Assembly: GCA_944391395.1 (NCBI GenBank)
Contig: CALXTI010000002.1
Coordinates: 1-64,000, forward strand
Direction: 5' to 3'
Source of the DNA: an uncultured Alphaproteobacteria bacterium
GTDB taxonomy: Bacteria > Pseudomonadota > Alphaproteobacteria > RF32 > CAG-239
Length of the DNA: 64,000 bases
Of this stretch, positions 28,834 through 52,637 are shown in pieces (position 1 is the stretch's first letter; the number at the start of each line of letters is the position of its first letter). The translations under genes and the position numbers were made by a program. Under the pieces are notes generated by a model. The model had not been told where the DNA came from, ran no database searches, and saw nothing but the letters and a program-made list of their open reading frames with translations.

Positions 28834-28835
28834 AA

Positions 28836-36172: not shown

Positions 36173-36247
36173 GGTCCCATCGTCTAATGGTTAGGACATC
36201 ACCCTTTCACGGTGGTAATATGGGTTCGAGTCCCGTTGGGATCACCA
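36173..36247 (+). tRNA. tRNA-Glu (anticodon TTC)
   Basis: GGTCCCATCGTCTAATGGTTAGGACATCACCCTTTCACGGTGGTAATATGGGTTCGAGTCCCGTTGGGATCACCA. Anticodon loop is CTTTCAC. Confidence 0.85.
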
Positions 36248-36251
36248 ATAC

Positions 36252-36290
36252 AAACGGCAGGTACAAAAACTGCCGTTTTGCTTTATTTTC
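36252..36290 (+). terminator. Rho-independent terminator after tRNA-Glu (aaacggcag...ctgccgttt followed by a T-rich tail)
   Basis: Seen directly. Confidence 0.6.
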
Positions 36291-36482
36291 CAAGACTTTC
36301 AGCGAGTTCGAAAGTCGTATTTTTGAAAATTGCAATTTGGGAAGTTTTTACGAACTCGTTTATAAAAAAGTCTTTATTTTTTAATATGTTGAGTAATTTT
36401 GAATTGCGCTCAATTTTTGTGTATAACCAGCAATTTGGTTTCTTTTTTTATTTTTTAGTATATAATTAATTGAGGAGTCACT

Positions 36483-36986
36483 ATGAAGATTATAAACATT
36501 AATGGGCCGATGAATGCAGGAAAGACAACGATTTCAAAACTGCTGGTTTCGGAATTGAAAGTAGCGTTGTTTATAGAGGTCGATGATTTGCTTTCTGATG
36601 AAGAACAAAAAGTTTTAGGGTTAAGCAGAGAAGAAGGATGGCGTGAAAGGATTAAAAGACTTAATACGATTCTTAGCCAAGAGAAAGAAAAAGCTCAATA
36701 TGAATATATAATTTTTGCTTATCCGATGACTGAAAAACTTTATTGGCAGTGGAAATCATTAGAAAATACCGAAACTGCGTTTATTAATATCACATTAGCT
36801 CCGCAACTTGAGATATGTTTGCAAAATCGTGGTGATAGAGAACTGAATGATAAAGAAAAAGACAGAATAAAAGAAATGTATCAGCAAGGTTATCATAATT
36901 CTGTTTTGGCTGATTTAATTATTGATAATAGCGCGCAATCGCCTAACGATACCTTACAACAAATTTTAGCGTTTTTGGGAAAATAA
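36483..36986 (+). CDS. Small P-loop kinase-like protein (AAA_33 / chloramphenicol-phosphotransferase-like fold)
   Basis: Walker A ININGPMNAGKTTISKLL at the N-terminus. Size about 167 aa. GAGGAG ribosome-binding site. Confidence 0.55.
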   Translation: MKIININGPMNAGKTTISKLLVSELKVALFIEVDDLLSDEEQKVLGLSREEGWRERIKRLNTILSQEKEKAQYEYIIFAYPMTEKLYWQWKSLENTETAFINITLAPQLEICLQNRGDRELNDKEKDRIKEMYQQGYHNSVLADLIIDNSAQSPNDTLQQILAFLGK

Positions 36987-36987
36987 A

Positions 36988-37458
36988 ATGATCGTCAGAA
37001 AGTTTAAAAAAGAAGATTTAGCGCAAGTGTTAGAATTATGTCGTGAAGTCAGGCAACATCATATTGATATTCTTAATGGTTATTTTACACAGCAAGATGA
37101 TCAATTTGAGCAACTTGGATTTCTTCAATCGCTTGAAGATGATAAAATGTGTGCTTTAGTTGCGGTTAATGATGATATTGTTTGTGGTTATTTGTTGGCT
37201 GAGAGGAAGTATTCGCCTTATTTAGAAGGTGCCAATGTTGTTCATATTGCTAATTTTGGTGTACAGAAAGATTTACGAGGTAAGGGTATTGGAAAAGAGT
37301 TGATGAACGCATTATTTGAAATATGTAAACAATGGAATGTGGATGAAATTCGGCTTGGGGTGTTTAATAAGAATGTTGATGCGTATCATTTTTATGAACA
37401 ATATGGTTTTGAACCGTTTGAACAACGAATGAATTTGCAGATGAAGAAAAAATTATAA
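36988..37458 (+). CDS. GNAT-family N-acetyltransferase
   Basis: VQKDLRGKGIGKELMNALFE acetyl-CoA-binding motif. Confidence 0.75.
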   Translation: MIVRKFKKEDLAQVLELCREVRQHHIDILNGYFTQQDDQFEQLGFLQSLEDDKMCALVAVNDDIVCGYLLAERKYSPYLEGANVVHIANFGVQKDLRGKGIGKELMNALFEICKQWNVDEIRLGVFNKNVDAYHFYEQYGFEPFEQRMNLQMKKKL

Positions 37459-37475
37459 TTTTTAGCTCGGAAGCT

Positions 37476-37527
37476 GTGAGTTAAGCATCACCAATAAAAA
37501 ACCTCTCTTGAAAAGAGAGGTTTTTTT
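37476..37527 (+). repeat. Copy 1 of the short repeat GTGA[G/A][T/A]TAAGCATC...AAGAGAGG, here fused to a complete hairpin terminator (aaaaacctctctt-gaaa-agagaggttttttt)
   Basis: Matches 38141-38175 and 38929-38966. Confidence 0.6.
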
Positions 37528-37697
37528 GTTGACCCTAGGGGCTCGAACCCAGGGTTCGTTCAATTCCGACTATGTTTCGCCGCGCAGCGCTGCCGCTTGC
37601 CTGCTCAAACAAGTCTCATTGCGTCTCCTTAAAAAAAACTTTCCCCGGAAGTTTTTTTGCGGCTGTCCGTTGGAATCACAAAAAAACAGAAGCTGTT

Positions 37698-38054
37698 TTA
37701 AGGCTTCTGTTTTGGAGATTCTGTTGATGCTTTTATAACAGGGAGAATGCAAGTAAAAGACAAGGTGAAAGCAAATGTTGCCGTTGCTATTGTTTCAAAG
37801 AGTCCCGTATAAACCCCAAGCATTCCTTCCGTTGCCATAAAGGCAAAAAGCACGCCTGAAAAAATCCAGCCTATCCCGGCATCGATAAGTTTCTCAGGTT
37901 TTATAAAAGCCAGCACTATTCCTAAGGCTGTAATTACGGCTACAAAGAAAATGATGCCTTTCCAATTAAACTCATGTGCTATTGATAAGCCCCATGCTAC
38001 AAAAAGTGTAAATAAAGGAGCCATTAAAATTAACAATATTTTTTTCATACGCAT
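37698..38054 (-). CDS. Small integral membrane protein (about four transmembrane helices)
   Basis: Hydrophobic profile of the 118-aa ORF. Confidence 0.45.
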   Translation of the reverse strand: MRMKKILLILMAPLFTLFVAWGLSIAHEFNWKGIIFFVAVITALGIVLAFIKPEKLIDAGIGWIFSGVLFAFMATEGMLGVYTGLFETIATATFAFTLSFTCILPVIKASTESPKQKP

Positions 38055-38140
38055 AAAAATTTAAATTATACAATAATCCTAATTTTGTATCATTATAGGC
38101 AAGTTTTTTTTATATGTAAATGAAATTTATTTTGAAAATT

Positions 38141-38175
38141 GTGAGATAAGCATCGCTTTTTAAGAGAGGTTTTTA
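38141..38175 (+). repeat. Copy 2 of the GTGAGATAAGCATCGCTTTTTAAGAGAGGTTTTT repeat
   Basis: Direct sequence identity with copies 1 and 3. Confidence 0.6.
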
Positions 38176-38179
38176 GATG

Positions 38180-38860
38180 CTAACGACAATGTTTTCGGAT
38201 TATTGCCGTTAAAGGTATTGTCCTTTTATTTGGTGTTTTCTTTCGTTCGTTTAATTCAAACAGCAAATCTTCTTTACACTGTTTTATTCTTTCATAAATA
38301 TTGGTGCGCAATTCTTCTTTTTTATCTGATTTGCATTTTAGCAGTAATTTTTCCACCATGTCGTCAACATTATTTGGTCGGACGGGTGGCGGAGGATTGT
38401 TTCTTGATTTTTCGGCGGCTTGCGTTATTTTTTCTTCCGGTAAAGTTAGGTTTTTATTTCCGCCATTCACATTAGGGATACAGCCAACAATGTATTTGCT
38501 ATCTACCGTTCCTTTTATGAGACTACCATATTTTTTCAGCAAACAAAATTCATCCATCGGTATGTCAAAAACGATTTTTGTGTCGGCATACCGCGCATTA
38601 TCATAACATGAAAAATCATCATGACGCATGCTTTCCCAAAACGAAGTTTCATTATAAACGGAGACCATTGATGTAATGTTTGAATAAGAACCGCCTTTTT
38701 GTAATGAAGATAAATGTGCGGCGTTTCTATTAAAAACAAGACCGTTTTTTTTGATACTGTTTACATGATCTTTATATAGACAGCGATGCACCAAACGAAC
38801 CCATCCTTTTTTCAGAGAGGGCAGGGTTTCTAATTTGTCGTATTGTTGCGCATTGTCCAT
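38180..38860 (-). CDS. Hypothetical protein of 226 aa with an internal poly-proline stretch (NNPPPPVRPNN)
   Basis: ORF with no recognised domain. Bracketed by direct copies of the short repeat. Confidence 0.5.
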   Translation of the reverse strand: MDNAQQYDKLETLPSLKKGWVRLVHRCLYKDHVNSIKKNGLVFNRNAAHLSSLQKGGSYSNITSMVSVYNETSFWESMRHDDFSCYDNARYADTKIVFDIPMDEFCLLKKYGSLIKGTVDSKYIVGCIPNVNGGNKNLTLPEEKITQAAEKSRNNPPPPVRPNNVDDMVEKLLLKCKSDKKEELRTNIYERIKQCKEDLLFELNERKKTPNKRTIPLTAIIRKHCR

Positions 38861-38928
38861 ATCGTTTCTCCTTTAAGCTGATAATAACATAAAAATATAA
38901 TTTAGTCTATTGAATTGGTTTGCAAACC

Positions 38929-38966
38929 GTGAATTAAGCATCGCTTTTAAAGAGAGGCATTTTTTA
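38929..38966 (+). repeat. Copy 3 of the GTGAATTAAGCATCGCTTTTAAAGAGAGGCATTTTTT repeat
   Basis: Direct sequence identity. Confidence 0.6.
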
Positions 38967-39151
38967 ATTCGGACGAGATTTTTTGCTCTGTTTTTGTTTG
39001 TTTTCCATTTATAAAAACGGTTGTTAAATTGATGTAAGATTGAAGTCCGTTGGTTGATTTAGTTTTTTTCTTTTGGTGATGCCGGTCAACCCTAATATTA
39101 AACTTGATTTGTTGAAATAAATTCCATACGATGTAAACCAAGGAGTTGGAT

Positions 39152-39610
39152 ATGAAAAAAATATTTTTTATTTTATCTTGTTGCATCATTGTTTCTCAAG
39201 CTCATGCCTATGTTAATTGTTATGAAGATGGTTATGGAAATAGGAATTGTTACGGAACGAATTCTGACGGAGACTTCGTAAATATTCGTTCTTCCAGAGA
39301 TTCTTTTGGAAACACCAATACGTTCGGCACCATAGGCGATGACTTTATGGACACACGTTCTTCCAGAGATTCTTTTGGAAACACCAATACATTTGGCACA
39401 ATAGGCGATGACTTTATAGATGTGCGTTCTTCCAGAGATTCTTTTGGAAATACCGATACGTTTGGCACCATAGGCGATGATTTTATAAACACACGTTCTT
39501 CCAGAGATTCTTTTGGAAATACCAATACGTTTGGCACCATAGGCGACGATTTTATAAACACGCGTTCTTCCAGAGATTCTTTTGGAAACACGACCATATA
39601 TGACTTTTAA
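39152..39610 (+). CDS. Secreted protein made of a signal peptide plus five tandem 20-aa repeats (RSSRDSFGNTNTFGTIGDDF)
   Basis: Signal peptide MKKIFFILSCCIIVSQAHA. AGGAG ribosome-binding site. Repeats are visible in the translation. Confidence 0.65.
   Translation: MKKIFFILSCCIIVSQAHAYVNCYEDGYGNRNCYGTNSDGDFVNIRSSRDSFGNTNTFGTIGDDFMDTRSSRDSFGNTNTFGTIGDDFIDVRSSRDSFGNTDTFGTIGDDFINTRSSRDSFGNTNTFGTIGDDFINTRSSRDSFGNTTIYDF
39287..39600 (+). repeat. Five near-identical 60-bp tandem repeats that encode the protein repeats
   Basis: cgttcttccagagattcttttggaaacaccaatacgtt[c/t]ggcaccataggcgatgactttat... reiterated. The antisense ORF 39250-39597 is an artefact of this repeat. Confidence 0.85.
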
Positions 39611-39695
39611 TAATTAATTTAACGAAATACAACATATAAACTTTGATATTATATTTTGCCTTATGATAAATTGAGAAACGGTAATACATGTGTGA

Positions 39696-40160
39696 ATGTT
39701 AAAGAAATATCATAATATGAAGATTGTTGAAATAAAAGAACGGACGCCGTTGTTGATTGAGAAATTGTTATGTGTTTGGGAAAATTCGGTTAAAGCGACG
39801 CATTTGTTTTTATCCGATAATGAAATAAACAACATTAAGCCGTATGTGCCGCAGGCTTTAAATAGTGTTCCTGTTTTGGTGATTGCGGAAAATGAAAAAG
39901 GAGAGCCGATAGGTTTTATGGGAGTTTCCGGCCAGATGCTTGAGATGTTATTTATCGCAAATGAAAACAGAGGGCAAGGGATAGGAAAACAGCTGCTGCA
40001 ATACGGTGTTGAAAACTATGCCGTAAACGAACTTACCGTCAATGAACAGAATCCTCTCGCCAAAGGTTTTTACGAGCATATGGGGTTTAAGGTTTATAAA
40101 AGAACGGAATTGGATGAGCAGGGAAACCCGTATCCGTTGTTATACATGAAAAGGGATTAA
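39696..40160 (+). CDS. GNAT-family N-acetyltransferase
   Basis: RGQGIGKQLLQYGVE motif and a size of 154 aa. Confidence 0.7.
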   Translation: MLKKYHNMKIVEIKERTPLLIEKLLCVWENSVKATHLFLSDNEINNIKPYVPQALNSVPVLVIAENEKGEPIGFMGVSGQMLEMLFIANENRGQGIGKQLLQYGVENYAVNELTVNEQNPLAKGFYEHMGFKVYKRTELDEQGNPYPLLYMKRD

Positions 40161-40490
40161 TAAAATCCGGTTTGAATACCCCTTTCGCAGCAAATATCGT
40201 ATCAGCGATTTTACAAAAATTTTCCGTGATTTAATCATACAATTTTAATATTTCATCAATATAATTTTATCCAGCTTGTAATTATAAACGTGGCTATTTT
40301 ACAGAAAGGCGGGGTTTGTGTCAAATTAGCCAAAAGTAGACGCATTTTTAAATGGAAAGAATTAACTTGCTGTTTTGCGTATTTTTTCATGAAAATAAGT
40401 ATTAAATTTGCAAAATCGAGTTGATTTTATCGTTGGTTTGTGTTATTCTGCATATATGATTTACAAAATTTTGTCTAAAGGAGTAAATAA

Positions 40491-41498
40491 ATGACACAGT
40501 TTATGTACGTTAATCCGGCAATGAAAAATCCTAAAACCGGAGATAATGTTCGTGAAACAGAAATTGCAAAATTAAAACAATTAAAAGAAGACGGTTATAC
40601 CATTATCGGTTTGGAGATGACCGTTTCCGAGTTGGCTGAATTGTGCGATAAAAACATAGACCCTCAACATACGGAAGGAAATGCTTTGCAATGTTGTGCC
40701 AAAGAAATTTATGAAAAAGCACCTGAGTTGTTGGGTTGGTTCAAATCAAAAGATCCTGAAAAAGTGGTGTTTGTAACAAATCGTGTGGACGTGGACTCTG
40801 TCGCGTCATATGTTTTAGCCGACAGATATTTGCAAGGTCAAGATTTGGGACCTAAAGAAAGTATTGAAAAAATCAATGAACATGATGCCTTCCAGGGATC
40901 CAAATGGGACGGGCCGAAACCGATTGAACAAGCTTTTGATCCGGAAAATAAAGTTGCCGCCCTGGCTTCATCTGTTAAAGTATTCATGGTAACGCCTCAA
41001 AACATTGAAGATGTCAAATCTTTTATTGATACAGGAAGTGTTAACGATACGATTATGAATAATTACAGGACGGTTCAGACGGGTATTATTGACCGCGTAA
41101 AATCTGGAGAAATCAAAACAGAGGTTGTGGGCGGTGTTGCATACGTTGAAACAACATTGCCTTGCGCCACCAATGTCGGGTATTCCATGGCTCCGGTTGT
41201 TGTGGCGGTTAATCCGGCGATGAAGCTCGGTTCGCAGGGTGAGCCTTTCCGCAAAGTCAGTATTTGTCAGCACGAGGTTGGATATGCTGATTTGAACGCC
41301 GTTGCCGATCAACTCAATCAAATAGAAGGCGGTTGGGGTGGAAGCCCAACATTTAAAGGTTCAAAACAAGGTGAAAACTGTAATGTCAGCTTATCTGACA
41401 TCAAAAAAGCTGTTTTTGCCAATTTGACACCTGAATATAAAGAAAAAGTTTCTTCCAATACCGGTCATACCAACGACGGTAAGAGCTTGGGAGAGTAA
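40491..41498 (+). CDS. Hypothetical protein of 335 aa. It shows very weak DHH/DHHA1-like motif resemblance (VDVDSVAS, GGWGG).
   Basis: AAAGGAG ribosome-binding site. No confident domain. Confidence 0.55.
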   Translation: MTQFMYVNPAMKNPKTGDNVRETEIAKLKQLKEDGYTIIGLEMTVSELAELCDKNIDPQHTEGNALQCCAKEIYEKAPELLGWFKSKDPEKVVFVTNRVDVDSVASYVLADRYLQGQDLGPKESIEKINEHDAFQGSKWDGPKPIEQAFDPENKVAALASSVKVFMVTPQNIEDVKSFIDTGSVNDTIMNNYRTVQTGIIDRVKSGEIKTEVVGGVAYVETTLPCATNVGYSMAPVVVAVNPAMKLGSQGEPFRKVSICQHEVGYADLNAVADQLNQIEGGWGGSPTFKGSKQGENCNVSLSDIKKAVFANLTPEYKEKVSSNTGHTNDGKSLGE

Positions 41499-41510
41499 CA
41501 TTCTATATAA

Positions 41511-41545
41511 AAGGTGCTGATAACCAATCGGCACCTTTTTGATAA
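41511..41545 (+). terminator. Hairpin (aaaggtgctgat...atcggcaccttt) with a T-rich tail, between 40491-41498 and the large gene
   Basis: Seen directly. Confidence 0.5.
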
Positions 41546-41563
41546 AAAAAACGGGGCAATAAA

Positions 41564-44500
41564 ATGAGTATAAGTGTTGATTTAGCAAAACGATATGAAA
41601 TTAAGAGTGAATATTATAAGGATTATGATGGGAAGGGCGAATATGATAATCATGTTGTGTCCATTGAGCCGAACGAAGATGATGTGGTTTCTTTCAATGG
41701 TGCAGAAGTGTGTCGCGGTCGTTTTTTAGGCCATCCGAATGATGATAAATCCTTATATTTGATTAAATCAAACACAAAACAATATCTCTACGAAGATGAT
41801 TGGTTGCTTATGGAGGGAGATAATCTTTTCATATATGGAGATTTGTGCATTCAGCAATGTGAAAATAAATGCTACATCGTTAATCTTAAAGATAATTCGG
41901 AAATTGCCTCTATTGATAACGTTTCTTTTAAAGGTTATGATGCCGAACATAAAGCATTTGCTTTTGGCGATAAGGTTTATGTGCTTGATGGTAATGAATT
42001 AACGGAATGTCAAGGTGAGGCCAAAGTACTTAAGTTTGATATGCCGACTTATGATATTAAAGCCGAAGCGTATACTGTAGGACTAGATGTTCGTCAGACC
42101 AATCAATACGAGTCGATTGCAAAACACACTTATGCGGCTGGCATACAAGATGCTAACGGAAACTTATTAGTATTTGAGCCAATATCCCAAAATACAGAAA
42201 TAGACAGGCAAGCATTAGTTGATATTTATGTGGGTAAATTGCTTGATTACAGAAGAACGCCGCAACAAAAAAAAGAGATTGACGGGATAAGGACGGCATA
42301 TTCAATACTGTATAACGAAGATATTTCTCGGCAAAAAGATGAAGGGGGATTTACTCCCTTTGAAAGACTATTATGCCATTCGCTGGAGAGATGTTTTCCA
42401 GCTTTAAAAGATTTTTATTTGGATGATTTAAAAAAGGCAACTGATGTAAACCCGAATATAGAACTAAATGTAGCATTCGTATCAAGATCATTGTTTTCTA
42501 AATCTTCCAATGACAAGTTGTCTGATGATGATATAAAATTAATGGCTGATTTTATCGCACGGAATCCGCACATAATATCTCGTTTTTCCAATGTAGAGTT
42601 TTTGCCGCTGGCAAAAGCATCGCCTGAAATGGTCGTCAATTGGGTTAAAGCTTCCGATTCATATGATAAGACAATCGAAAAATTGGAGAATTTAAAGGCG
42701 CTTGAAATACCGGCGCGTTTATTAGCATTTGAAATTTTACAGAAAAATGGTATAAAATTTTATTTTAAAGAAGATTTTGTATTGGCTCCTAATAAAGAGT
42801 TTTGGGAATGTGTTAAGGATAACGGGTTTGGTGAGCCATATAAAGCTTTTAATAAACTTTGTAATGCGCTTAAATGTTGTCATAATAAAGATAGCTTCTT
42901 CTATGTTACGACAAAAGAAATGCTTAGAGAGTTTTTGCAAGATAATCCTAAGTATGCTACCGGTTCCGGGCCAAACTGGTCTGAGGATGAATATGCCAAG
43001 TTTCTTGTTGAACACGGTCTCACAACAGATGAAAAGATGATCGCCAGGACGACAGAATTTGCGAAAATATCAAAAATTCAGCGTTCTCTTGATGCCATTC
43101 AATATGGTAAAAGAGATATTTCGTTAAACTGCAGACTTGAGGATATAGTTGATTTCACCGATTGCGATTACGCAGCACCGAGATACCATTTATCAAATGA
43201 GTCGAAAACAACGTTTCTTAATGAGATGCTGATTTATGGTAAAGGTAAAGAAGCCGCATATGCTTTGTCGCATGGTGCCTCGCCTTTTCAGAAAATTGAA
43301 TTTTTCAGAGGTAAAAAAACGGGGATGCCGTTTGCGGGAGTGTTTTTGCGCACAATGAAAGATAATTTTTCCGGTGTTCAATCTTTGATGAACGAGATTG
43401 CCCGAAATCTGGATGCCAAATCAGGTCAACAAATTATTGCCGACATCGAAAAATCTTTGGGGCAGAATCTGCGACAAATGCCGGAGGTTGTTCAAATTAT
43501 GAAAAATATGCGTGAGACATTTATGCACGCTAAATTTGAATATGAAAAAAAGCACAGAGAAGATCAAAAATATCAAAAGGAGCTGGATGAAAGCCGAAAG
43601 TTTAAGGCAGAACATCAGCAGGAAATAGATGAGTTGGATAAAGCGTATCGGATTGCAACCCGACAAAAAATTGATGAATATTTTCCCATATTTGATGGCG
43701 AAAAAACGTTTGACTTGGGAACACATTCTGTAAAGCTTGTTTTATACACTCAAGAAAATTTAGATCAAGTCAAAGAAAAAATCGTGGAACTTGAAGCTCA
43801 TCATCAGCTGGTTGATGAGATTGTTAAGAAATTGGTTGAAAAAAATGAAAATACCGGAAAATCGTTGGCTAATCGCTTTAATGAGCTTGGATATGATGTT
43901 GAGGTGGCAGATAACGGAGTTACGTATCGGCCAAAAGATAATCTCTACTATCCCGCTACGACTATACCTTTTTCCCAAGATACGCTTACAGATTTAGATG
44001 AATTTGTTGCGAAACAGGAAAAATATCGGCGGATTGAGCAAGAACAAAAGCTTGAAAAATTACGTCAAATAGCAACACAAGAAAAAAAACGGCAACAGAA
44101 AGAGCAATATGAAGCCATGGGCTTGCCTTCCGATGTGCAGGTGTGGCATCGTGTCGGTGCGGGAACAATGTGTGGAGATGGTTGGGTAATAAAATCTGAC
44201 GGCTCGTTTAGAGAACCGGATACATTTACTCCTAAAAAGAAGTTCAGTTCGGACGGGTTTAAATGTTGGAAACAAATTCTTCCCGGCGAAGTTGCGTTAT
44301 CTTGGAAAAAAGACAGTGCTGCTTCAGAACATGATTTTGAGGTTATTTACGTGCCACAAGAAGGTTTGAGTAATCAACAGAAAGAACAAATATTAAAAAT
44401 TGAAGAGGATATACAGGAAGAATGGAAAGACCGTAAGGGAATTTCATCCGGAGAACCATCGCCGTCCGTTGGTTATGGTTGGAATATTTGCGGCAGAAAA

Positions 44501-44671
44501 GAGCCTCTGTTAAGAGATGAGGAATATGAGTTTTCGCAACAAGATACGCAAGATGTTAAAAACATAAACACATCTGCAGACGAAGAAGCGGCAGATATAC
44601 CGGATCGCCCTGCCACGACTGAAGATTTAGCCGCACTTATGAAACATTTTGGAGGAAATGGTAGAAAATAG
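41564..44671 (+). CDS. Large hypothetical protein of 1035 aa with a central Lys/Glu/Gln-rich coiled-coil region. Effector-like.
   Basis: Long uninterrupted ORF with no P-loop or other recognisable catalytic motif. Confidence 0.6.
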   Translation: MSISVDLAKRYEIKSEYYKDYDGKGEYDNHVVSIEPNEDDVVSFNGAEVCRGRFLGHPNDDKSLYLIKSNTKQYLYEDDWLLMEGDNLFIYGDLCIQQCENKCYIVNLKDNSEIASIDNVSFKGYDAEHKAFAFGDKVYVLDGNELTECQGEAKVLKFDMPTYDIKAEAYTVGLDVRQTNQYESIAKHTYAAGIQDANGNLLVFEPISQNTEIDRQALVDIYVGKLLDYRRTPQQKKEIDGIRTAYSILYNEDISRQKDEGGFTPFERLLCHSLERCFPALKDFYLDDLKKATDVNPNIELNVAFVSRSLFSKSSNDKLSDDDIKLMADFIARNPHIISRFSNVEFLPLAKASPEMVVNWVKASDSYDKTIEKLENLKALEIPARLLAFEILQKNGIKFYFKEDFVLAPNKEFWECVKDNGFGEPYKAFNKLCNALKCCHNKDSFFYVTTKEMLREFLQDNPKYATGSGPNWSEDEYAKFLVEHGLTTDEKMIARTTEFAKISKIQRSLDAIQYGKRDISLNCRLEDIVDFTDCDYAAPRYHLSNESKTTFLNEMLIYGKGKEAAYALSHGASPFQKIEFFRGKKTGMPFAGVFLRTMKDNFSGVQSLMNEIARNLDAKSGQQIIADIEKSLGQNLRQMPEVVQIMKNMRETFMHAKFEYEKKHREDQKYQKELDESRKFKAEHQQEIDELDKAYRIATRQKIDEYFPIFDGEKTFDLGTHSVKLVLYTQENLDQVKEKIVELEAHHQLVDEIVKKLVEKNENTGKSLANRFNELGYDVEVADNGVTYRPKDNLYYPATTIPFSQDTLTDLDEFVAKQEKYRRIEQEQKLEKLRQIATQEKKRQQKEQYEAMGLPSDVQVWHRVGAGTMCGDGWVIKSDGSFREPDTFTPKKKFSSDGFKCWKQILPGEVALSWKKDSAASEHDFEVIYVPQEGLSNQQKEQILKIEEDIQEEWKDRKGISSGEPSPSVGYGWNICGRKEPLLRDEEYEFSQQDTQDVKNINTSADEEAADIPDRPATTEDLAALMKHFGGNGRK

Positions 44672-44706
44672 GTACAAAATTTAAATCGTTACAAGCAGAA
44701 GTTATA

Positions 44707-45765
44707 TCATTTTTTTAGAATATAAGAAACTCCCCGAGTTGTTCCAAGTTTTGTTAAAAATCCTTTTTTAACCAGATTTTGAACTGATTTTCGGATTGTT
44801 TCTGCATTTTTGCCTGTTTTTTGAACAATTTCAGGCATGCTTAATTCAGTTTTTTCGGTAAATAAGCCTAAAATTTCATGCGCTGTGGAAGATAATTTTT
44901 CTATATTTGTTTTTTGCAAATTTTGAATTTTATCTTCCAAAGCTCTTTTTTGTTTTTGCAAAGACGTTACAAAAAATGACAGCCATGGCTCATAATCTAT
45001 TTTATCACGCCATATTGTTTTTTGTGTGCCGCGAAGCGCTCTATAATATGCCTCCTTACTCGTCTCGATAATGGATTCCATAGATGCATAAGGCATGTAG
45101 CTGTAGTTGTTTTTAAGCATCAAAAGAACCGTTAAAGCACGAGACAGGCGCCCATTTCCATCTGTAAACGGATGAATGGATAAAAAATGTACGATAAACA
45201 CACCAATCGTGATGATAGGATGCAAAAAGCGATCCTTAAATGTGTCATTTGTCCATTGTATTAATTCCCGCATGAGCCTTGGTGTGTCAAACGGAGTAGC
45301 CGTCTCAAAAATAGTGCCAATTTCTTTACCTGATGCATTATATGCCGCAACTCTGTTGGAATCTGTTTTATATTCCCCGCGATGACGTTCATCTTTTGAT
45401 GAATATTTTAAAAGTATTTGATGTAACTGTTTGATATAGTTTTCCGTTAAGGGAATATCTTCATAGTTTTCAAATATTGTATTAATCAAATCCGAATAGC
45501 CGGCAACTTCTTCTTCATCTCTGGAGCTAAAAGATTTTTTGTTAATACGGCTAAACAACTCCTCAATTTCGGCATCACTCATCTTGTTGCCTTCTATTCT
45601 GTTGGAAGATCCAACAGATTCTATTGTGGCAATTCGTTTCATAATCCTTAGCTCTGCCGGGGTTAGTTTTAACACATCCGAACGCCAAGAACCAATAAAT
45701 TGATCTATCTCGGCAATTTTGTTTAACATATCCGGAGTTATTGTAATATCTTTTATTTTGGGCAT
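44707..45765 (-). CDS. Fic/DOC-family protein (HPFTDGNGR motif) with a C-terminal winged helix-turn-helix
   Basis: Canonical Fic motif HPFxDGNGRxxR. AAAGGAGA ribosome-binding site. Confidence 0.85.
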   Translation of the reverse strand: MPKIKDITITPDMLNKIAEIDQFIGSWRSDVLKLTPAELRIMKRIATIESVGSSNRIEGNKMSDAEIEELFSRINKKSFSSRDEEEVAGYSDLINTIFENYEDIPLTENYIKQLHQILLKYSSKDERHRGEYKTDSNRVAAYNASGKEIGTIFETATPFDTPRLMRELIQWTNDTFKDRFLHPIITIGVFIVHFLSIHPFTDGNGRLSRALTVLLMLKNNYSYMPYASMESIIETSKEAYYRALRGTQKTIWRDKIDYEPWLSFFVTSLQKQKRALEDKIQNLQKTNIEKLSSTAHEILGLFTEKTELSMPEIVQKTGKNAETIRKSVQNLVKKGFLTKLGTTRGVSYILKK

Positions 45766-45781
45766 ACTATCTCCTTTTGTT

Positions 45782-45855
45782 TTACCAGATATTACCAGAT
45801 ATTACCAGATAAGTCAAGATATAGTTACCAGATAGCGTAAAACAATTACCAGATA
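45782..45855. promoter_or_regulatory. Five copies of the direct repeat TTACCAGATA, three of them perfectly tandem at 10-bp periodicity, immediately upstream of the fic start
   Basis: ttaccagata at 45782, 45792, 45802, 45825 and 45846. Confidence 0.7.
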
Positions 45856-46041
45856 TTCCCGGATAAGGGTGTTTCAGCTAGAGAGCCTTGCGTGTAAAGT
45901 TTCTATTTAAAACTTATTTGCAATGATAGCGCTTTTGATTTTTGAGACCAAAGATTTATCGATACTTACGTTTTTTACTTGTGATGGGAGTGTCGTATCA
46001 GCTTTTTGAGTTTTCTTTATGATACAATGTTTGGATTAATC

Positions 46042-46236
46042 GATCGTTTAATGTTAACATCCACATTGTTACCATAACATATTTTTGTCTAATATGCAAC
46101 ATTTTTTACGCATTATCTATACAGCTTTTTTATTAATATTTTCTTAGTATCGTTTTTATTTTCTTTTTTTATTTGGATAAAAAATTGTCAATTTAAACCG
46201 TTAACATTAAACGATCTTTTAATGCTGCATTGCATG
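46042..46236. repeat. Perfect 17-bp inverted repeat (GATCGTTTAATGTTAAC / GTTAACATTAAACGATC) bracketing an AT-rich spacer of about 160 bp, upstream of the ankyrin gene
   Basis: The arms at 46042-46058 and 46220-46236 are exact reverse complements. Confidence 0.6.
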
Positions 46237-46266
46237 TAAAAGTCGACTATTTGGGAGGATAAAACA

Positions 46267-47694
46267 ATGAAATGGGATCCATATGAAAACGGTTATCTTG
46301 GGGAATTCTTTTCCGTAGATCAATATGATTCGAAAGACGAACCTTGCGTGGTCAAAGACGCGAGAGAATTAAAAGCCGGTACATCATATTCGGAACACAT
46401 GCTTGATTTGAACGAATTGATGGAAAAAGGTGTTGTTCACCGCGATGATAAAATAGATTTGTCCGAGATGCCGGAAATTGAAACCATTCAGGCGGCCAGC
46501 CAAGAGCAATTAGATATGTTAACGCCGGAATCTAAAAAGCAAATTAAGGCTATTCATTTAAGCAATAACACGCCGTTTGGTTGGAATGAGGAACTTGATT
46601 ATAACAACATTTACGGAATGGATACCAATTTGGATTTGTCTTCTTATGAAAATGTGAGCGAAGTTCAGACACATTTTTATGTAAACAATGATTTGGAAGA
46701 TATTGTTTTGCCCCCAAAAGTTACCGAGATTTTGTGTCAGCATTCCAAGATGGAAAATTTGCGAAAACACGGTAATCTTGAAGATATTAAGGTTGAGGCA
46801 TCTTCTACGGAAACAGCATTTGTTAGTTATTATGGCCGGGAAAAGAAAGGATGGGAATTTGCACAGGATTATTTAAGGACCGGCGATATTGAAAAACTTC
46901 ATGCGTTTAAGGAACATGGCGGGGATATGCAGCTGCTTTTATCGGAAGCAATCAAGAAAGGCAGTATAGATACTGTTCAGGAAGTCGTGGAAAACGGAGC
47001 GGATGTCAATAAAAACACCGTAGATTATTGCGGTGATACATTAAATTATCCGTTAGAAGAAGCCGTGTCGGAGGATACAAGAGATTATCAGCGCAGAGAT
47101 ATTGTGGAATATTTGATTGCTCAGGGCGCTAAGCTTGAAGGGCGGGAAGGCTCTTATTCTCCGTTAAGCATACAACTGCGACAAGAAGTTAAAGATTATA
47201 AATGTATTGATTTGTTGCTTAAATCCGGTGCGCCCGTAACCTCTGAGGATGTCAAATCCGCTCTTAGTGATGCTAAAGCATTTGAGGTGTTGATGAAAAA
47301 CGGATATCAACCAACCGACAGAGATATGAGCACATTTGTAAGGAGAAATTATGACGGTGCTCACGAGCAAGACCTTGAGGATAAGATAAAAATTGTGAAT
47401 TTAATGGTTCAAGCTCGTCCCGATGCTTTAAAAGAAGGTGGTGCGTTGAAAGACTTTGAATCTAAGTATCCAGAATTGCAACAATATCGCGCCAATATGA
47501 CAAAGGCTGCAGAAAATAGCGCGACACGCGATAATCGGGAATATTTGAAAGCCGTCATGGAAAAAGAAAAACAAAGACGTTATGTCCAACAAGAGCAAAT
47601 CGGTGAAAAAGCGGAAAATAAATCCGTTGCACCGGCTCAGAAAAATGCCGGTCTTCATGATTTGAAGAATCACAAAGACGATTTGGCAAAGTAG
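46267..47694 (+). CDS. Ankyrin-repeat-containing protein, effector-like
   Basis: Repeated ...G(A)DVN...LL..GA... ankyrin-like units in the central region. GGGAGGA ribosome-binding site. Confidence 0.65.
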   Translation: MKWDPYENGYLGEFFSVDQYDSKDEPCVVKDARELKAGTSYSEHMLDLNELMEKGVVHRDDKIDLSEMPEIETIQAASQEQLDMLTPESKKQIKAIHLSNNTPFGWNEELDYNNIYGMDTNLDLSSYENVSEVQTHFYVNNDLEDIVLPPKVTEILCQHSKMENLRKHGNLEDIKVEASSTETAFVSYYGREKKGWEFAQDYLRTGDIEKLHAFKEHGGDMQLLLSEAIKKGSIDTVQEVVENGADVNKNTVDYCGDTLNYPLEEAVSEDTRDYQRRDIVEYLIAQGAKLEGREGSYSPLSIQLRQEVKDYKCIDLLLKSGAPVTSEDVKSALSDAKAFEVLMKNGYQPTDRDMSTFVRRNYDGAHEQDLEDKIKIVNLMVQARPDALKEGGALKDFESKYPELQQYRANMTKAAENSATRDNREYLKAVMEKEKQRRYVQQEQIGEKAENKSVAPAQKNAGLHDLKNHKDDLAK

Positions 47695-47711
47695 TTTGTT
47701 GCTCATAAGAT

Positions 47712-47752
47712 TAAAAACGCATTGGTTTTGCAATCAATGCGTTTTTAATTTG
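47712..47752 (+). terminator. Hairpin terminator after the ankyrin gene (aaacgcattg...caatgcgttt followed by TTAATTT)
   Basis: Seen directly. Confidence 0.45.
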
Positions 47753-47850
47753 GCCATAACATCGAAAATAAAAAAATATTGACAAAAAGCCCAAAAAGAG
47801 GTGTATTGATTTTGTTTAAGAAGTTATTGTGAAATTAAATTGCAAAAGAT

Positions 47851-48321
47851 ATGAAAAAAATGAAAAAAGAAGCAGAGCTTGAATTTTTGATGAGCTCTGC
47901 CAAAGAAGAAAAAAGAGAATACTCAAAACAATTCGGGATTTGCACGCCGAATCTGAGTTATCTCATGGAAGAAAACCGTGAGATTTTTGACGAGATTATC
48001 TCGGAGTGCAAGAGAATTCCGGATACCGTCATGGCGGCTATGATTGAAGAGGAAAAATATCTTGACGTCATTATGGCAAGATGTCTTTCCGAAGACAATC
48101 AGGTAAAATTTGTAGAATATTGGCCGGAGAAGGTGGCGCAATATTTGCAAATTTTGGAGGCCAATCTTGAAGACGGCCGCGGCGCGTATCTCTGCCGGGA
48201 GGCAGAAGAAATATATGAGGAGATTCGGGAAGAAGATTCTTCTCTGCCGGAACTGAAGGTTCGCCTTTCCGGCACTCCGGCGATCAATTCGCCATTTGCC
48301 GTTCTGGCAAACGCGTTTTGA
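47851..48321 (+). CDS. Hypothetical acidic protein of 156 aa
   Basis: ORF followed by a strong terminator. No domain. Confidence 0.45.
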   Translation: MKKMKKEAELEFLMSSAKEEKREYSKQFGICTPNLSYLMEENREIFDEIISECKRIPDTVMAAMIEEEKYLDVIMARCLSEDNQVKFVEYWPEKVAQYLQILEANLEDGRGAYLCREAEEIYEEIREEDSSLPELKVRLSGTPAINSPFAVLANAF

Positions 48322-48336
48322 TTGAAAAAAACGAAT

Positions 48337-48373: not shown

Positions 48374-48393
48374 GTCTTTAAAATATCCTTTTT

Positions 48394-48507
48394 ATGATTC
48401 GAACGTAACACTACCTGCGTATGCAGGTAGAGGTAGGCATGCCAACCCGGCCATAGGTTTGCAAAGCTTTGGGGTAGGGCGAACGAAGTTCGGAATGATA
48501 ACACTAT
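48394..48507 (+). repeat. Copy C of the intergenic repeat family (same family as 27827-27992 and 28716-28833). It contains the perfect hairpin ctacctgc-gtat-gcaggtag.
   Basis: atgattcgaacgtaacactacctgcgtatgcaggtagaggtaggcatgcc...gcaaagctttggggtagggcgaacgaagttcggaatgataa aligns with copies A and B. Confidence 0.65.
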
Positions 48508-48676
48508 TTGCGTAAGCCAGGGGAAGTTCATTTTGTAAACATAATCAATTAGCATCTTTTCTTATGGCGGTATTGATTCAATATTTTCCACAAGCCGATA
48601 AAAACCCTTGACTTAGGGTTAACTCTAATATTTATACGTGTATATGTCTTAATGATAACATTTTAGCGAGGTTTGT

Positions 48677-49768
48677 ATGAAAATGATTGGAGTTTTAAGT
48701 TCGTTTATTATCGGAGCTTTGGCGGCGAGCGCTGCTTTTTATTATTTTTGCCCGGGCAAGAAGGCGGAAATAAAGTCGCAGCCGGTTAAAGCGAATCCGA
48801 ATGAGATTGTTTTGAACAACGACTGGGACAAGACATTTGCAAAAAGCGACAAGGTGGATACGCACAAAGTTGTGTTTAAAAATCGTTTCGGCGTGCCGTT
48901 GGTCGGCGATTTGTATATGCCCAAAAACAGAGGAAACAAGCCGTTGGCGGCGATTGCGGTGTCCGGTCCGTTCGGTGCGGTCAAAGAACAGGTTTCCGGC
49001 CGTTATGCCCAGACATTGGCCGAACGCGGTTTTGTAACGTTGGCTTTTGACCCGTCGTTTACCGGTGAAAGCGGCGGGGCTGTTCGTGATGTTGCCTCAC
49101 CGGATATCAACACCGATGATTTCAGCGCCGCGGTTGACTATCTGACCACGTTGCCGGAGGTTAATGCCGATGCAATCGGCATTATCGGTATTTGCGGTTT
49201 CGGCGGTTTCGGTTTGAATGCCGCGGCGCAAGATACGCGCATAAAAGCGACGGTTACTTCCACCATGTATGACATGACGCGGGTGTCGGCACACGGCTAT
49301 AATGATTCCATGTCGGACGAAGACTTATATAAAATGCGTGAGGATTTGAACAATCAGCGCACGCAAGACGCCAAAACCGGCACTTTTGCCAAAGCGGCGC
49401 CATTGCCGGATAAATTGACCGGTGATGAACCGCAGTTTGTAAAAGACTATGTCAATTTTTATAAAACGCCGCTGGGTTTTCACAAACGTTCCATCGGTTC
49501 CAACGGGGCGTGGAACGCGACATCGGCTTTGTCTTTGATTACGCAGCCGATTTTGGCTTACAGCCATAGCATCAAAAATCCGGTGTTGATGATTCACGGT
49601 GAAAAAGCGCACAGCCGTTATTTTTCGGAAGACGCGTTTAAAAAACTGACGGGCGATAATAAAGAGTTGCTGATTGTCCCCGGTGCCAATCACACGGATT
49701 TGTATTATAAAATGGACGTGATTCCGTTTGACAAGATGGAGCAATTTTTCAGAGATAATTTGAAATAA
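48677..49768 (+). CDS. Alpha/beta hydrolase (dienelactone-hydrolase-like) with an N-terminal transmembrane anchor
   Basis: PLAAIAVSGPFGAVKEQ...VTLAFDPSFTGESGG alpha/beta-hydrolase-fold features. Confidence 0.65.
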   Translation: MKMIGVLSSFIIGALAASAAFYYFCPGKKAEIKSQPVKANPNEIVLNNDWDKTFAKSDKVDTHKVVFKNRFGVPLVGDLYMPKNRGNKPLAAIAVSGPFGAVKEQVSGRYAQTLAERGFVTLAFDPSFTGESGGAVRDVASPDINTDDFSAAVDYLTTLPEVNADAIGIIGICGFGGFGLNAAAQDTRIKATVTSTMYDMTRVSAHGYNDSMSDEDLYKMREDLNNQRTQDAKTGTFAKAAPLPDKLTGDEPQFVKDYVNFYKTPLGFHKRSIGSNGAWNATSALSLITQPILAYSHSIKNPVLMIHGEKAHSRYFSEDAFKKLTGDNKELLIVPGANHTDLYYKMDVIPFDKMEQFFRDNLK

Positions 49769-49788
49769 GCAAAATCTGAACGAAAGAT

Positions 49789-49822
49789 GAGCGGGCGCGG
49801 TTTTCAGGCTCGCTCTTTTTTT
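49789..49822 (+). terminator. Rho-independent terminator (gagcgggc...gctcgctc followed by TTTTTTT)
   Basis: Seen directly. Confidence 0.65.
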
Positions 49823-50148
49823 ACTTTAAGTGTCGGTATGGGGAAGTAATTTTTGATGTCCGGCGCTACAATGTAAAATTGCGAAGTTTGTACCACCAAC
49901 GCTTGAAAAACGATAGTTTATGATTCAATATTTTGCAAGGTTGCCAACCTTTTTGTAAAGCACGGTCGCCGGTCATTATCATGTCAACGCTGCCGAGTTT
50001 GTTAAGGTTTAAGGAGGTGCGGTACGATAATATGCGAGAAGTTTTCCGGTTTAAAAAGTTCTTCCGTTCAAGCAAGCGGGAGATTTCCGCAGCGGTGATA
50101 TCTTAAAACACGGTGTTTTTAAAAGTTATTAAAAAAACGGATTTATAT

Positions 50149-50877
50149 TTAAATATCCGGGGCAAAAAATTCCAAAAATTTTTGTTTGGCAGTTTGGTTG
50201 ATTTCGTGGCGCATACCGGCAATGATTTCGGTTTGCGGATAAATACCGATGCTTTCAAGAGCGGATTTGGTCAAGTTGATGCTTGACGGCGGAATGGCGC
50301 TGTCGTTGTCGCCCTGAATCAGCAAAATTTGCGGCGCGGAAACAATCAGACCGGTGTCAAAATCTTCGGTAATGACAAACGGAACTCCGGAAAACGATAT
50401 GGCTTTATTTAAAGGGTGCGGCGTGGTCAGCGCGGTCAGAACCGCCATCAACCCGCCTTGGGAAAATCCGGCGATACTGATGTTTTCATAGGGCATTCCT
50501 AAATCATTATGAATATTGTCTATCACCTCTTGCAGCACAGGCACGTTGTCAAGTGCGCCGTCCAACATTTTTTGATATATTTTGACATCAACCATTTGCG
50601 GACCGTAAACCGGTAAATCAAACCATTGATGTCCGCGAAACGGGGTTTTATCCGGCGAAGTCGGATAAAAAAACGCGGTGTCGGGAAGTTTGTCCTTAAA
50701 CGAGGCAGCCATTGTCTGCATCCGGGCGCCGTCTTGTCCGAATCCGTGAATGAGAATTAACGCGCGTTGCGGATTTTCGGGAATGTCGGATATAACTTCG
50801 GCGGCTTTGCTGCTGCTCAAATTAAGGCCGATGAATAAAGCGGCGGCGATAAGTACGAGGGCGAAAAGTTTTTTCAT
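50149..50877 (-). CDS. Secreted phospholipase/carboxylesterase-family alpha/beta hydrolase
   Basis: Signal peptide MKKLFALVLIAAALFIGLNLSSSKAA and the GFSQGG nucleophile motif. Confidence 0.75.
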   Translation of the reverse strand: MKKLFALVLIAAALFIGLNLSSSKAAEVISDIPENPQRALILIHGFGQDGARMQTMAASFKDKLPDTAFFYPTSPDKTPFRGHQWFDLPVYGPQMVDVKIYQKMLDGALDNVPVLQEVIDNIHNDLGMPYENISIAGFSQGGLMAVLTALTTPHPLNKAISFSGVPFVITEDFDTGLIVSAPQILLIQGDNDSAIPPSSINLTKSALESIGIYPQTEIIAGMRHEINQTAKQKFLEFFAPDI

Positions 50878-51005
50878 AATCTTTCTCCATATTTGACCCA
50901 TATTTTGAATTATACGTTTTTTTTCTTAAAATCGGATTAAGACGATCTGCCACATTTATTAAGCTAATATCTGTTTTTTTAATTTTTAAGATGAAAGGAA
51001 AACAG

Positions 51006-51605
51006 ATGATATACGGCTACATCCGCGTCAGTTCGGATAAACAGACGGTTGAAAATCAGCGTTTTGAAATCAATGAATTTATCAAAAAGAATGATTTACG
51101 GGTCGACCGTTGGGTACACGAAGTGATAAGCGGAGTTAAAAATTTTGAAGAGAGAAAATTAGGAAAGTTGCTTAAGGGGTTGAAAAAAGGCGATGTTCTC
51201 TTGTGTTCGGAGCTTTCGCGGTTGGGTCGCAATCTTTTACAAATCATGACAATCTTAAACATATGCATGCAAAAGGAAGTGCAAGTATGGACGATTAAAG
51301 ACAATTATCGTCTGGGTGCTGATATTCAGAGCAAGGTTTTGGCGTTTGCTTTCGGGCTTTCGGCGGAAATCGAGCGCAACCTTATTTCGCAGCGCACCAA
51401 AGAAGCACTGGCGCGTCTAAAAGCCGAAGGCAAAAAACTGGGTCGAAAACAGGGAACGCGCATTGCCAACAAAAAAATCAGCGGCAAAGAAGAATGGATT
51501 TTGCGGATGCTGGAGCAAAAAACACCGAAGGTGAAAATCGCGCAAGCGCTCGGAATATCCAGAATCACGCTCTATTGTTTTTTAAAAAGGTTTGAACGGG
51601 CGTGA
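51006..51605 (+). mobile_element. Small serine recombinase (resolvase/invertase family) with a C-terminal helix-turn-helix
   Basis: MIYGYIRVSSDKQ catalytic-serine N-terminus, about 200 aa. AAGGAAA ribosome-binding site. Confidence 0.85.
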
Positions 51606-52614: not shown

Positions 52615-52637
52615 GTTTAGAAAATGGAGTGTTCGAA

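Follow-up and report, generated by a model that had tools for sequence, protein, structure and literature searches.

A probable accessory-gene island in a variable slot after tRNA-Glu in an uncultured alphaproteobacterium

Islands linked to transfer RNA (tRNA) genes, which carry tyrosine integrases of the P4 type or persist as decayed remnants, lie on the 3' side of a tRNA gene, deviate in GC content and codon usage, hold mosaic cargo and occupy a slot whose content varies. A partial duplication of the tRNA 3' end is the classical footprint of site-specific integration by tyrosine integrases. In the present study, we analyzed a 64,000-nucleotide (nt) stretch of DNA (the window) from an uncultured Alphaproteobacteria bacterium (GenBank assembly GCA_944391395.1, contig CALXTI010000002.1, positions 1 to 64,000, forward strand), in which a tRNA-Glu(UUC) gene is followed by an AT-rich block. 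An earlier note on this DNA had proposed an effector-rich genomic island of about 15 kb (36173-51605; 15.4 kb), bounded by tRNA-Glu and a serine recombinase. Our results indicated that the segment 36.36-47.8 kb is an accessory-gene island, immobile now, in a variable slot after tRNA-Glu(UUC), and we assign this reading, together with the mechanism proposed below, a probability of about 0.7. The proposal of a tRNA-anchored, compositionally foreign island in a variable slot was borne out, whereas its effector-rich character and the recombinase as its bound were not. The locus shares with tRNA-linked islands the position, the deviating composition, the mosaic cargo and the varying slot, and its relatives show partial tRNA 3'-end duplications. 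It differs from them in several respects: the window holds neither an integrase nor an intact flanking direct repeat, excision is not in evidence, the island is fixed in all assemblies of the species that were available, and its right edge is only compositional. The island is real but ordinary: shorter than proposed, without mobility genes of its own and assembled from several units.

Global phase variation of the Mpi type has been described in Bacteroidales. In Bacteroides fragilis, Mpi is the recombinase that inverts the promoters of the capsular polysaccharides (PMC10403206). SoFic of Shewanella oneidensis, a family included in PADLOC and DefenseFinder, acts in abortive-infection phage defence through AMPylation (PMC12249575). 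The DHH/DHHA1 phosphoesterases (NrnA, PggH, GdpP, PAP phosphatase and RecJ) carry the canonical motifs DxD, D, DHH and GGGH. As in the ankyrin-Fic effector islands of Legionella and Coxiella, ankyrin-like repeats and a Fic protein are encoded near each other in our locus, in a host-associated bacterium; in contrast to those islands, the Fic protein is of a self-inhibited, DNA-binding type and the ankyrin signal is marginal.

Composition and extent of the island

Close to the tRNA, over a few hundred bases, the GC content drops from 0.44-0.51 to 0.32-0.34; it stays at 0.30-0.44 up to about 47.8 kb and is 0.39-0.53 thereafter. Summarized by block, it is 0.32-0.40 in the island and 0.43-0.50 in the flanks. 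The mean GC content at third codon positions (GC3) was 0.33 for the island genes versus 0.49 elsewhere in the window (Mann-Whitney p=1.4e-6). Among the open reading frames (ORFs) of 36483-47694, GC3 ranged from 0.25 to 0.37 (0.28 for the P-loop kinase and 0.25 for its partner GNAT protein), with the exception of the second GNAT gene (0.44), and nearly all ORFs in the remaining window ranged from 0.44 to 0.61. From 47851 on, GC3 was at background, with 0.48 for a gene of 156 amino acids (aa), 0.56 and 0.52 for two hydrolases and 0.49 for the recombinase, and the step was abrupt at both edges. The AT-richness that had been seen by eye was upheld by these shifts in GC and GC3, for 36.4-47.8 kb only. 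These results showed that the compositional island spans about 36.36-47.8 kb, that is, about 11.5 kb instead of 15.4 kb, and ends before the 156-aa gene, the hydrolases and the recombinase. Because the low-GC block stops at about 47.8 kb, and because the recombinase and the three genes preceding it are host-like in composition, the recombinase does not bound the island.

At the left end, both ARAGORN and Rfam confirmed the tRNA-Glu gene. Similarity to relatives continues for about 110 nt past this gene and stops at about 36360. The conserved stretch includes an inverted repeat (arms CGAGTTCG at 36303-36310 and CGAACTCG at 36351-36358) and was found in five related species (L003, L007, L009, L012 and L015), with 88% identity to L012. 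Five of six species retain the 7-bp stem, in which one change is compensatory. The element's core (TTTTTGAAAAT..GGGAA.TTTTACGAACTCGTT) recurs upstream of other genes, with two copies in contig L169 and one in L170. From its distribution in these sequences, the element is a dispersed intergenic element of the clade and a part of the ancestral locus, and it could serve as a promoter or operator or as a recombination site. The near-perfect 11-bp inverted repeat with a 38-bp spacer that had been noticed after the tRNA therefore exists (10/11 when extended), but since it is conserved in other species and dispersed, it was ruled out as the terminus of the island. The two copies in L169 (20-60 and 6170-6227) are direct and bracket 6.1 kb with genes for a homologue of the 335-aa cargo protein, an ankyrin-like 358-aa protein, a Peptidase_M15 protein, a GNAT protein and an inositol phosphatase; the single copy in L170 lies at 106-146.

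The slot after tRNA-Glu in related species

A genome scan with the lysyl-tRNA synthetase (LysRS) of the window returned human and animal gut metagenome-assembled genomes (MAGs) labelled Alphaproteobacteria, with 80-91% identity. In nine related species, a deacetylase gene is followed directly, on the same strand, by tRNA-Glu(UUC), and lexA-lysS lies ahead of them in most. After the tRNA, each of these nine species has its own, different DNA, and the window genes 3' of the tRNA, as far as the window end, had no counterpart in the 8-10 kb after the tRNA in any of them. The comparison of synteny that the earlier note had called for thus found a left flank that is kept and a right side that differs in each species. 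Such a finding, together with the compositional shift, favours an island over a conserved core gene order.

The GC content is often lower 3' of tRNA-Glu in the relatives, and several of their contigs end just beyond it. By Pfam, the slot of L012 holds an HTH_17 protein, a C5 methylase, a Dam-type (N6) methylase and a RhuM/Fic protein, and that of L007 holds a C5 methylase and an MT-A70 protein. Judged by these domain names, the content looks like the cargo of mobile elements. Exact 17-nt copies of the tRNA-Glu 3' end (TCCCGTTGGGATCACCA) were found downstream in three relatives, at 0.23 kb in L006, 0.89 kb in L009 and 7.0 kb in L168, where the copy reaches into the T-arm. These exact duplications showed that tRNA-Glu is a recurrent integration site of the clade, a hotspot in a group of uncultured gut Alphaproteobacteria that is almost unannotated. 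In L168 (2739-9822), the closest relative, the gene concerned is another tRNA-Glu, with anticodon CUC and an identical 3' end, and the copy 7.0 kb downstream is about 40 nt long. These repeats enclose eight mostly orphan genes, one of which encodes a GNAT protein, without a recognisable integrase; a 335-aa homologue lies just outside.

Exact, mismatch-tolerant and sliding-score searches of the window for a direct repeat of the tRNA-Glu 3' end, a check named in the earlier note, gave none at the right boundary. No integrase or transposase domain was detected in any ORF of 36.4-47.8 kb with Pfam, NCBIfam and PHROGs, and Rfam matched nothing except tRNAs, at gathering score or at E<=1. A match of 13/16 to the tRNA end, in the same orientation, lies at 37666, in the gap behind the kinase-GNAT pair, and the best match in each of 30 shuffled sequences was 11-12. 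We tentatively regard this match as a decayed attachment site (attR) of an older, small insertion. Two other candidates were rejected: a 12/16 match at 51106, within the recombinase gene, was no better than shuffled sequence, and a 17/25 match of the tRNA 3' end to the tandem-repeat gene was likewise at the shuffled-sequence level.

The island was present in every available assembly of the species. Exact-protein look-ups gave only assemblies with the same arrangement and no island-lacking strain of the species. One of these, a metagenome assembly in the European Nucleotide Archive (L001), carries a contig identical to the window, and the assemblies of two further samples (L173 and L174) are 98.9% identical to it over 39054-48165. 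Since the same block recurs in L173 and L174, the island is fixed, at least in the assemblies examined.

Taken together, these data suggest a stepwise history. Mobile DNA would have integrated repeatedly at the 3' end of tRNA-Glu in this clade; because the integration duplicates the tRNA 3' end, we infer integrases of the tyrosine type. Repeated integration would account for the different foreign DNA that each species carries after lexA-lysS-deacetylase-tRNA-Glu. In the species of the window, the inserted DNA would then have lost its integrase and attachment repeats and become fixed. The island may be a mosaic of several small units instead of one element: the kinase and GNAT genes with a possible relic attachment site; the orphan membrane and secreted-repeat proteins; the second GNAT; the enzyme with a DHH fold and its 1035-aa neighbour; the SoFic-type Fic AMP-transferase; and the modular ankyrin protein with its repeat-flanked upstream region. 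A mosaic origin is suggested by the genes for the 335-aa and 1035-aa proteins, which are found side by side near a tRNA-Arg in some rumen contigs and separately in other cases.

Several points weigh against this reading. Without an integrase or an intact direct repeat in the window, integration at this very locus is deduced from the relatives, and the right boundary is defined by composition and by nothing else. No empty site was found either: the LysRS scan returned only relatives at genus or family distance, and a metagenome scan with the 363-aa hydrolase returned many 80% homologues in unrelated contexts and no island-free allele. The available relatives are too distant for such a comparison (deacetylase 48-63% identical), and their right side is non-syntenic up to the window end. 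In addition, the 335-aa protein is 77-85% identical to its homologues in the nearest relatives, which is within the vertical range (lexA 79%, LysRS 91%), so part of the cargo may stem from a clade-wide gene pool and not from outside the clade. Finally, a second low-GC block of the window (20.1-26.8 kb) is a polysaccharide cluster, and low GC by itself is therefore no proof of recent transfer in this genome.

That second block (20139-27660, GC 0.34-0.37) encodes a GDP-mannose dehydratase, an 835-aa double glycosyltransferase, an epimerase and a DUF1796 protein, and is followed by about 870 nt of gene-free DNA beside tRNA-Gln (27668-27742, minus strand). A 71-aa ORF (27346-27561, minus strand) resembles the N-terminal part of tyrosine integrases and may represent the remains of one. 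In the MAGs nearest to the window by LysRS (91%; L003, L004 and L168), the local GC content is 0.29-0.34 versus 0.44-0.47 in the window, so that base composition differs greatly even among closely related genomes.

Table 1. Features of the tRNA-Glu locus, the island and its right flank (window coordinates)
Feature	Position	Strand	Remarks
tRNA-Glu, anticodon UUC, encoded CCA	36173-36247	+	ARAGORN; Rfam tRNA 60.8 bits; anchors the variable slot
Terminator of the tRNA gene, hairpin and T-run, AAACGGCAG..CTGCCGTTTT	36252-36289	+	Read from the sequence; position kept in relatives
Conserved element with inverted repeat GAGTTCG..38 nt..CGAACTC	36300-36362	+	Marks the left edge of the island
Two-gene unit, P-loop kinase (167 aa) and GNAT (156 aa)	36483-37458	+	GNAT start overlaps kinase stop
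Intergenic repeat of about 45 nt, copy 1	37462-37527	+	Ends in a strong terminator hairpin; fold z=-4.9
Candidate decayed tRNA-Glu 3' end (relic attR)	37664-37681	+	13/16 identity to CCCGTTGGGATCACCA, same orientation
Small membrane protein, 118 aa, orphan	37698-38054	-	ORF; no match in Pfam, NCBIfam, PADLOC, PHROGs
Intergenic repeat of about 45 nt, copies 2 and 3	38127-38176; 38915-38964		Island-specific
226-aa protein	38180-38860	-	No family match in Pfam, NCBIfam, PADLOC, PHROGs
Secreted tandem-repeat protein, 154 aa	39146-39610	+	Signal peptide, then 23-aa repeats
Second GNAT, YjaB-like	39696-40160	+	Pfam Acetyltransf_10; NCBIfam PRK10514 127 bits (cutoff 134)
335-aa phosphoesterase, divergent DHH/DHHA1 fold (predicted)	40491-41498	+	
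1035-aa protein	41564-44671	+	Predicted: N-terminal part rich in beta strands, then a helical region with coiled coil; the C-terminal domain (residues about 850-985, some 130 aa) belongs to no described family
SoFic-type Fic protein	44707-45765	-	N-terminal inhibitory helix, Fic core, C-terminal winged helix
Five copies of the 10-nt repeat TTACCAGATA	45781-45855	+	Upstream of and abutting the Fic start codon; 5 found versus 0.7 expected
24-nt inverted repeat (17 nt perfect) around 141 nt	46035-46058 / 46200-46223		Ends 44 nt ahead of the ankyrin start codon
475-aa ankyrin protein	46267-47694	+	N-terminal module, residues 12-192; weak ankyrin repeats at residues 222-330 (approximate)
Terminator hairpin after the ankyrin gene	47710-47749	+	18-nt arms, 94% complementary; low-GC block ends here
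Copy of the repeat element of about 160 nt	48389-48542	+	Just right of the island
Alpha/beta hydrolases, 363 aa and 250 aa	48677-50901 (363 aa: 48677-49768)	+ (363 aa); - (250 aa)	Pfam; GC at or above the host level; not in the low-GC block
Mpi-family master DNA invertase, 204 aa	50991-51605	+	Resolvase and HTH_7; NCBIfam NF009949

Cargo of the island and alternative readings

The gene types listed in the earlier note were all recovered by Pfam, and its tandem-repeat protein by Tandem Repeats Finder. Overall, phage defence and the modification of small molecules describe the likely roles of the cargo better than the targeting of a host by effectors does. Over residues 6-349, the Fic protein matched the PADLOC SoFic profile (PDLC03963) with E 1.3e-50; it also matched Pfam Fic (E 7e-18), HTH_24, PHROG 5978 (E 2e-58) and a full-length solved Fido protein (PDB 8uqu, E 1e-38). 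Its translation contains the catalytic motif HPFTDGNGRLSR and the inhibitory motif SNRIEG, which fit the patterns HxFx(D/E)GNGRxxR and (S/T)xxxE(G/N), respectively. Compared with SoFic, the profile match is full-length, the architecture is the same and the HPFxDGNGRxxR motif is intact. The differences are that the NCBIfam SoFic equivalog, with a cutoff of 550 bits, gives the window protein a score of only 60, and that five 10-nt repeats lie at its promoter. By this score, it is a distant member of SoFic. It belongs to the self-inhibited, DNA-binding class of Fic proteins and not to the translocated effectors. Since only 35 nt separate the gene from the next one, no small antitoxin-like gene lies downstream of it. 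The repeats that had been noticed at 45782-45855 are genuine, with five copies of TTACCAGATA and none elsewhere in the window. The array is likely an operator, a candidate that the winged helix of the Fic protein itself may bind.

The 335-aa protein was modelled with high confidence (predicted local distance difference test score, pLDDT, 93), and the model indicates a two-domain DHH fold of a divergent branch. Its invariant residues (DPQH, RxDxD, D and WGGS) are non-canonical and compatible with the DHH family; in contrast to the described DHH/DHHA1 phosphoesterases, it reads D-P-Q-H in place of DHH, and the Pfam models DHH and DHHA1 miss it. The family comprises 142 members, chiefly in related MAGs, where about 70 close homologue clusters are 50-85% identical. 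For the 1035-aa protein, only about five full-length relatives were found. Its C-terminal domain (residues about 845-990; window 44096-44533) was found in 248 cluster representatives. Nine of these were scanned, and six proved to be helicases of the DEAH/HrpA type; the domain stands alone or at the helicase C-terminus. The consensus reads WVI.PDG..R...EG..W.QI.PGE.VL.W.K...AA.HEF.V..P..GLT.AQL, and a profile of the domain matched nothing in PDB or Pfam. It is an undescribed domain that is also present in DEAH helicases. The predicted full-length structure was rejected as a guide, since it has pLDDT 63 and Foldseek returned a generic propeller-plus-solenoid with TM <0.2, which is not interpretable.

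The two genes lie together in rumen contigs, 1.4 kb downstream of tRNA-Arg. Elsewhere, 335-aa homologues are followed by unrelated proteins of 358-365 aa or by an aminotransferase, and a 1042-aa homologue of the larger protein occurs without a 335-aa gene. An obligate operon was ruled out, since the two genes also occur apart. In L171, a 335-aa homologue lies two genes away from another Fic protein.

These observations bear on a first alternative, in which the block is a dedicated anti-phage defence island, with SoFic, the DHH enzyme and its 1035-aa partner and perhaps the kinase-GNAT pair gathered at the hotspot. The full-length SoFic match speaks for it, as do the fusion of the 1035-aa C-terminal domain to DEAH helicases elsewhere, the cleavage of nucleotides and oligonucleotides by DHH enzymes, the Fic neighbour in L171 and the DNA methylases and RhuM/Fic protein in the same slot of relatives; a GNAT protein also weakly matched the PADLOC candidate PDC-M11A. 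However, matches to validated defence families were limited to one of the 11 genes, PADLOC missed both the 335-aa and the 1035-aa protein, whose genes have no obligate linkage, and the secreted repeat, membrane and ankyrin proteins do not suit a role in defence. We consider a dedicated defence island unlikely.

A second alternative is that the block was inherited vertically and evolves fast under weak expression, so that its AT-richness would reflect relaxed selection and not foreign origin. Such a history would agree with the many 335-aa homologue clusters in related MAGs, with the clade-specific N-terminal module of the ankyrin protein, with the fixation of the block in three other assemblies of the species and with its lack of mobility genes. 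In addition, the nearest relatives by LysRS have a genome GC content of about 0.30, and low GC is thus native to part of the clade. However, homologues of island genes occur in relatives at unrelated loci (near tRNA-Arg, near tRNA-Glu(CUC) and beside nrdD), the genes after tRNA-Glu are unrelated in each species, with att-type duplications in three, and the GC3 step is abrupt at both edges. On balance, vertical descent of the block seems distinctly improbable, and an accessory-gene island remains the preferred reading.

The ankyrin protein gave a Pfam Ank match of E 1.5e-4 and 22.4 bits, just over the cutoff of 21.1, and Ank_2, Ank_3 and Ank_4 stayed under their cutoffs. Its N-terminal module is shared, at 66-70% identity in many cases, with 22 related proteins whose C-terminal parts differ. 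The repeats that had been noticed at 46042-46236 correspond to a real 24-nt inverted repeat, and the segment between its outer ends (46035-46223) is a candidate for an invertible promoter or a structured leader. No inversion was observed: the segment has a single orientation in all three assemblies that cover it. In two other species (L175 5747-5930 and L179 5758-5941), a 19-nt inverted repeat with 146 nt between its arms lies about 70 nt ahead of the start codons of ankyrin-module homologues. The inner half of this repeat co-varies in a compensatory manner between the two species and has no Rfam match. There, a site resembling a promoter precedes the segment and a hairpin resembling a terminator comes after it, an arrangement that would suit a structured leader equally well. 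The segment of these species would thus be either an unclassified leader RNA or an inverton. All copies at the homologous position in L175-L178 have one orientation, without any inversion.

A further possibility joins two ideas, namely that the 335-aa, 1035-aa and SoFic genes form a new phage-defence module directed at nucleotides or nucleic acids, and that the 189-bp segment ahead of the ankyrin gene is a promoter flipped by the nearby Mpi-family invertase. We give the two together only a slim chance. If the promoter is indeed flipped in this way, global phase variation of the Bacteroides kind would also operate in gut Alphaproteobacteria, and on a target other than polysaccharide.

The kinase gave weak Pfam matches to AAA_18 and SKI and its partner matched Acetyltransf_1 (E 3e-19), with only sub-threshold NCBIfam matches; the unit probably modifies a small molecule. 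The short repeats noticed at 37476, 38141 and 38929 were verified as three copies of GTGARWTAAGCATCRC (0.03 expected), which occurs nowhere else in the window. In the secreted tandem-repeat protein, Tandem Repeats Finder delimited an array at 39287-39591 with a 69-nt unit in 4.4 copies; the arrays of the window and of another sample (L174) differ by a single unit. Across samples, the protein is 154, 152 or 129 aa long, and the contigs of other assemblies break inside the array. Pfam matched none of the 118-, 226-, 154-, 335-, 1035- and 156-aa proteins, and those that were scanned with the NCBIfam, PADLOC or PHROGs libraries had no match better than marginal.

The invertase and other genes of the right flank

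The serine recombinase that had been proposed as the right bound (51006-51605; called here from 50991) indeed carries Resolvase and HTH_7 domains; its role in the island did not hold. It matched the Mpi model NF009949 with 316.3 bits (cutoff 272; E 8e-95; residues 6-201) and a PHROG annotated as DNA invertase (E 8e-46), and its best PDB match was the DNA invertase 4m6f, with further matches to solved resolvases. With 204 aa and these two domains only, it has none of the additional domains that characterize large serine integrases (at least 400 aa, with recombinase and zinc-ribbon domains after the catalytic domain). The gene lies 3.2 kb past the compositional edge and 64 nt upstream of a polysaccharide operon (51670-58155) that encodes a Caps_synth protein, three glycosyltransferases (GT1, GT2 and GT1-like) and a pyruvyl transferase. 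Only distance links it to the island, and there is no demonstrated tie between the two. It is an invertase of the Mpi family and not an island integrase, and its profile and position suggest that it acts in phase variation and belongs with the polysaccharide operon.

The recombinase resembles Mpi of B. fragilis in three ways: its full-length match exceeds the curated cutoff of the family, it belongs to the small serine recombinases and ends in a helix-turn-helix domain, and its gene lies beside a surface-polysaccharide operon. It differs in that its host is an alphaproteobacterium and in that the polysaccharide operon has no invertible promoter at its side. Among repeat pairs in the window that resemble an invertible promoter, we found only the candidate ahead of the ankyrin gene and none adjoining that operon. 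An alphaproteobacterial member of the Mpi family would be of interest. For studies of defence or phase variation, the locus offers the SoFic-type gene, the new branch of the DHH fold, the helicase-associated domain and the Mpi-family invertase with one candidate target.

A single 15.4-kb mobile island with host-targeting Fic and ankyrin effectors, moved by the recombinase at its right end, is very improbable and already contradicted on recombinase class and boundary: the tRNA at one end, a recombinase gene within 15 kb, the Fic and ankyrin domains and the conserved ankyrin module with variable C-terminal parts (an architecture also known from secreted polymorphic proteins) would suit it, but the recombinase passes the Mpi model without large-serine-integrase domains, it and the three preceding genes are host-like in composition, no repeats flank 36173-51605, the tRNA 3'-end duplications of relatives mark tyrosine integrases, the Fic protein has the SoFic defence architecture (inhibitory helix and DNA-binding domain) and the ankyrin protein scored 17 bits against Legionella T4SS_AnkC, whose cutoff is 450. 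No secretion system, translocation signal or eukaryote-like domain turned up in this window, to which no effector predictor was applied. The description as effector-rich was therefore not sustained. A tRNA, a recombinase, a Fic protein and ankyrin repeats do not amount to an effector island; in such cases, it has to be checked to which class the recombinase belongs and how the Fic protein is built.

Between the island and the invertase, the repeats noticed at 48394-48507 are real and form part of an element of about 160 nt, outside the low-GC block. This copy is 75% identical to window segments 28678-28836 (minus strand) and 27824-28031 (plus strand) and 76% identical to a segment of a related species (L010 5654-5799). 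The former two are inverted copies (arms of about 100 nt, 82% identical) that enclose the gene for a 153-aa secreted protein (28105-28566), beside tRNA-Gln. The element had no Rfam match, and its four sequences showed no convincing conserved structure. It may be an element resembling miniature inverted-repeat transposable elements, an invertible cassette or an RNA gene. An AT-rich 15-nt inverted repeat around the 250-aa hydrolase gene (50128/50969) was judged to be due to chance.

The 363-aa hydrolase has homologues of 80-82% identity in dozens of rumen contigs (L088-L167) with unrelated flanks, which suggests that this gene is probably horizontally mobile too. Its composition differs from that of the low-GC block, and it therefore has a different history. 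The homologues often lie beside flavodoxin-like genes, and in L097 one of them is accompanied by homologues of the invertase and the 250-aa hydrolase.

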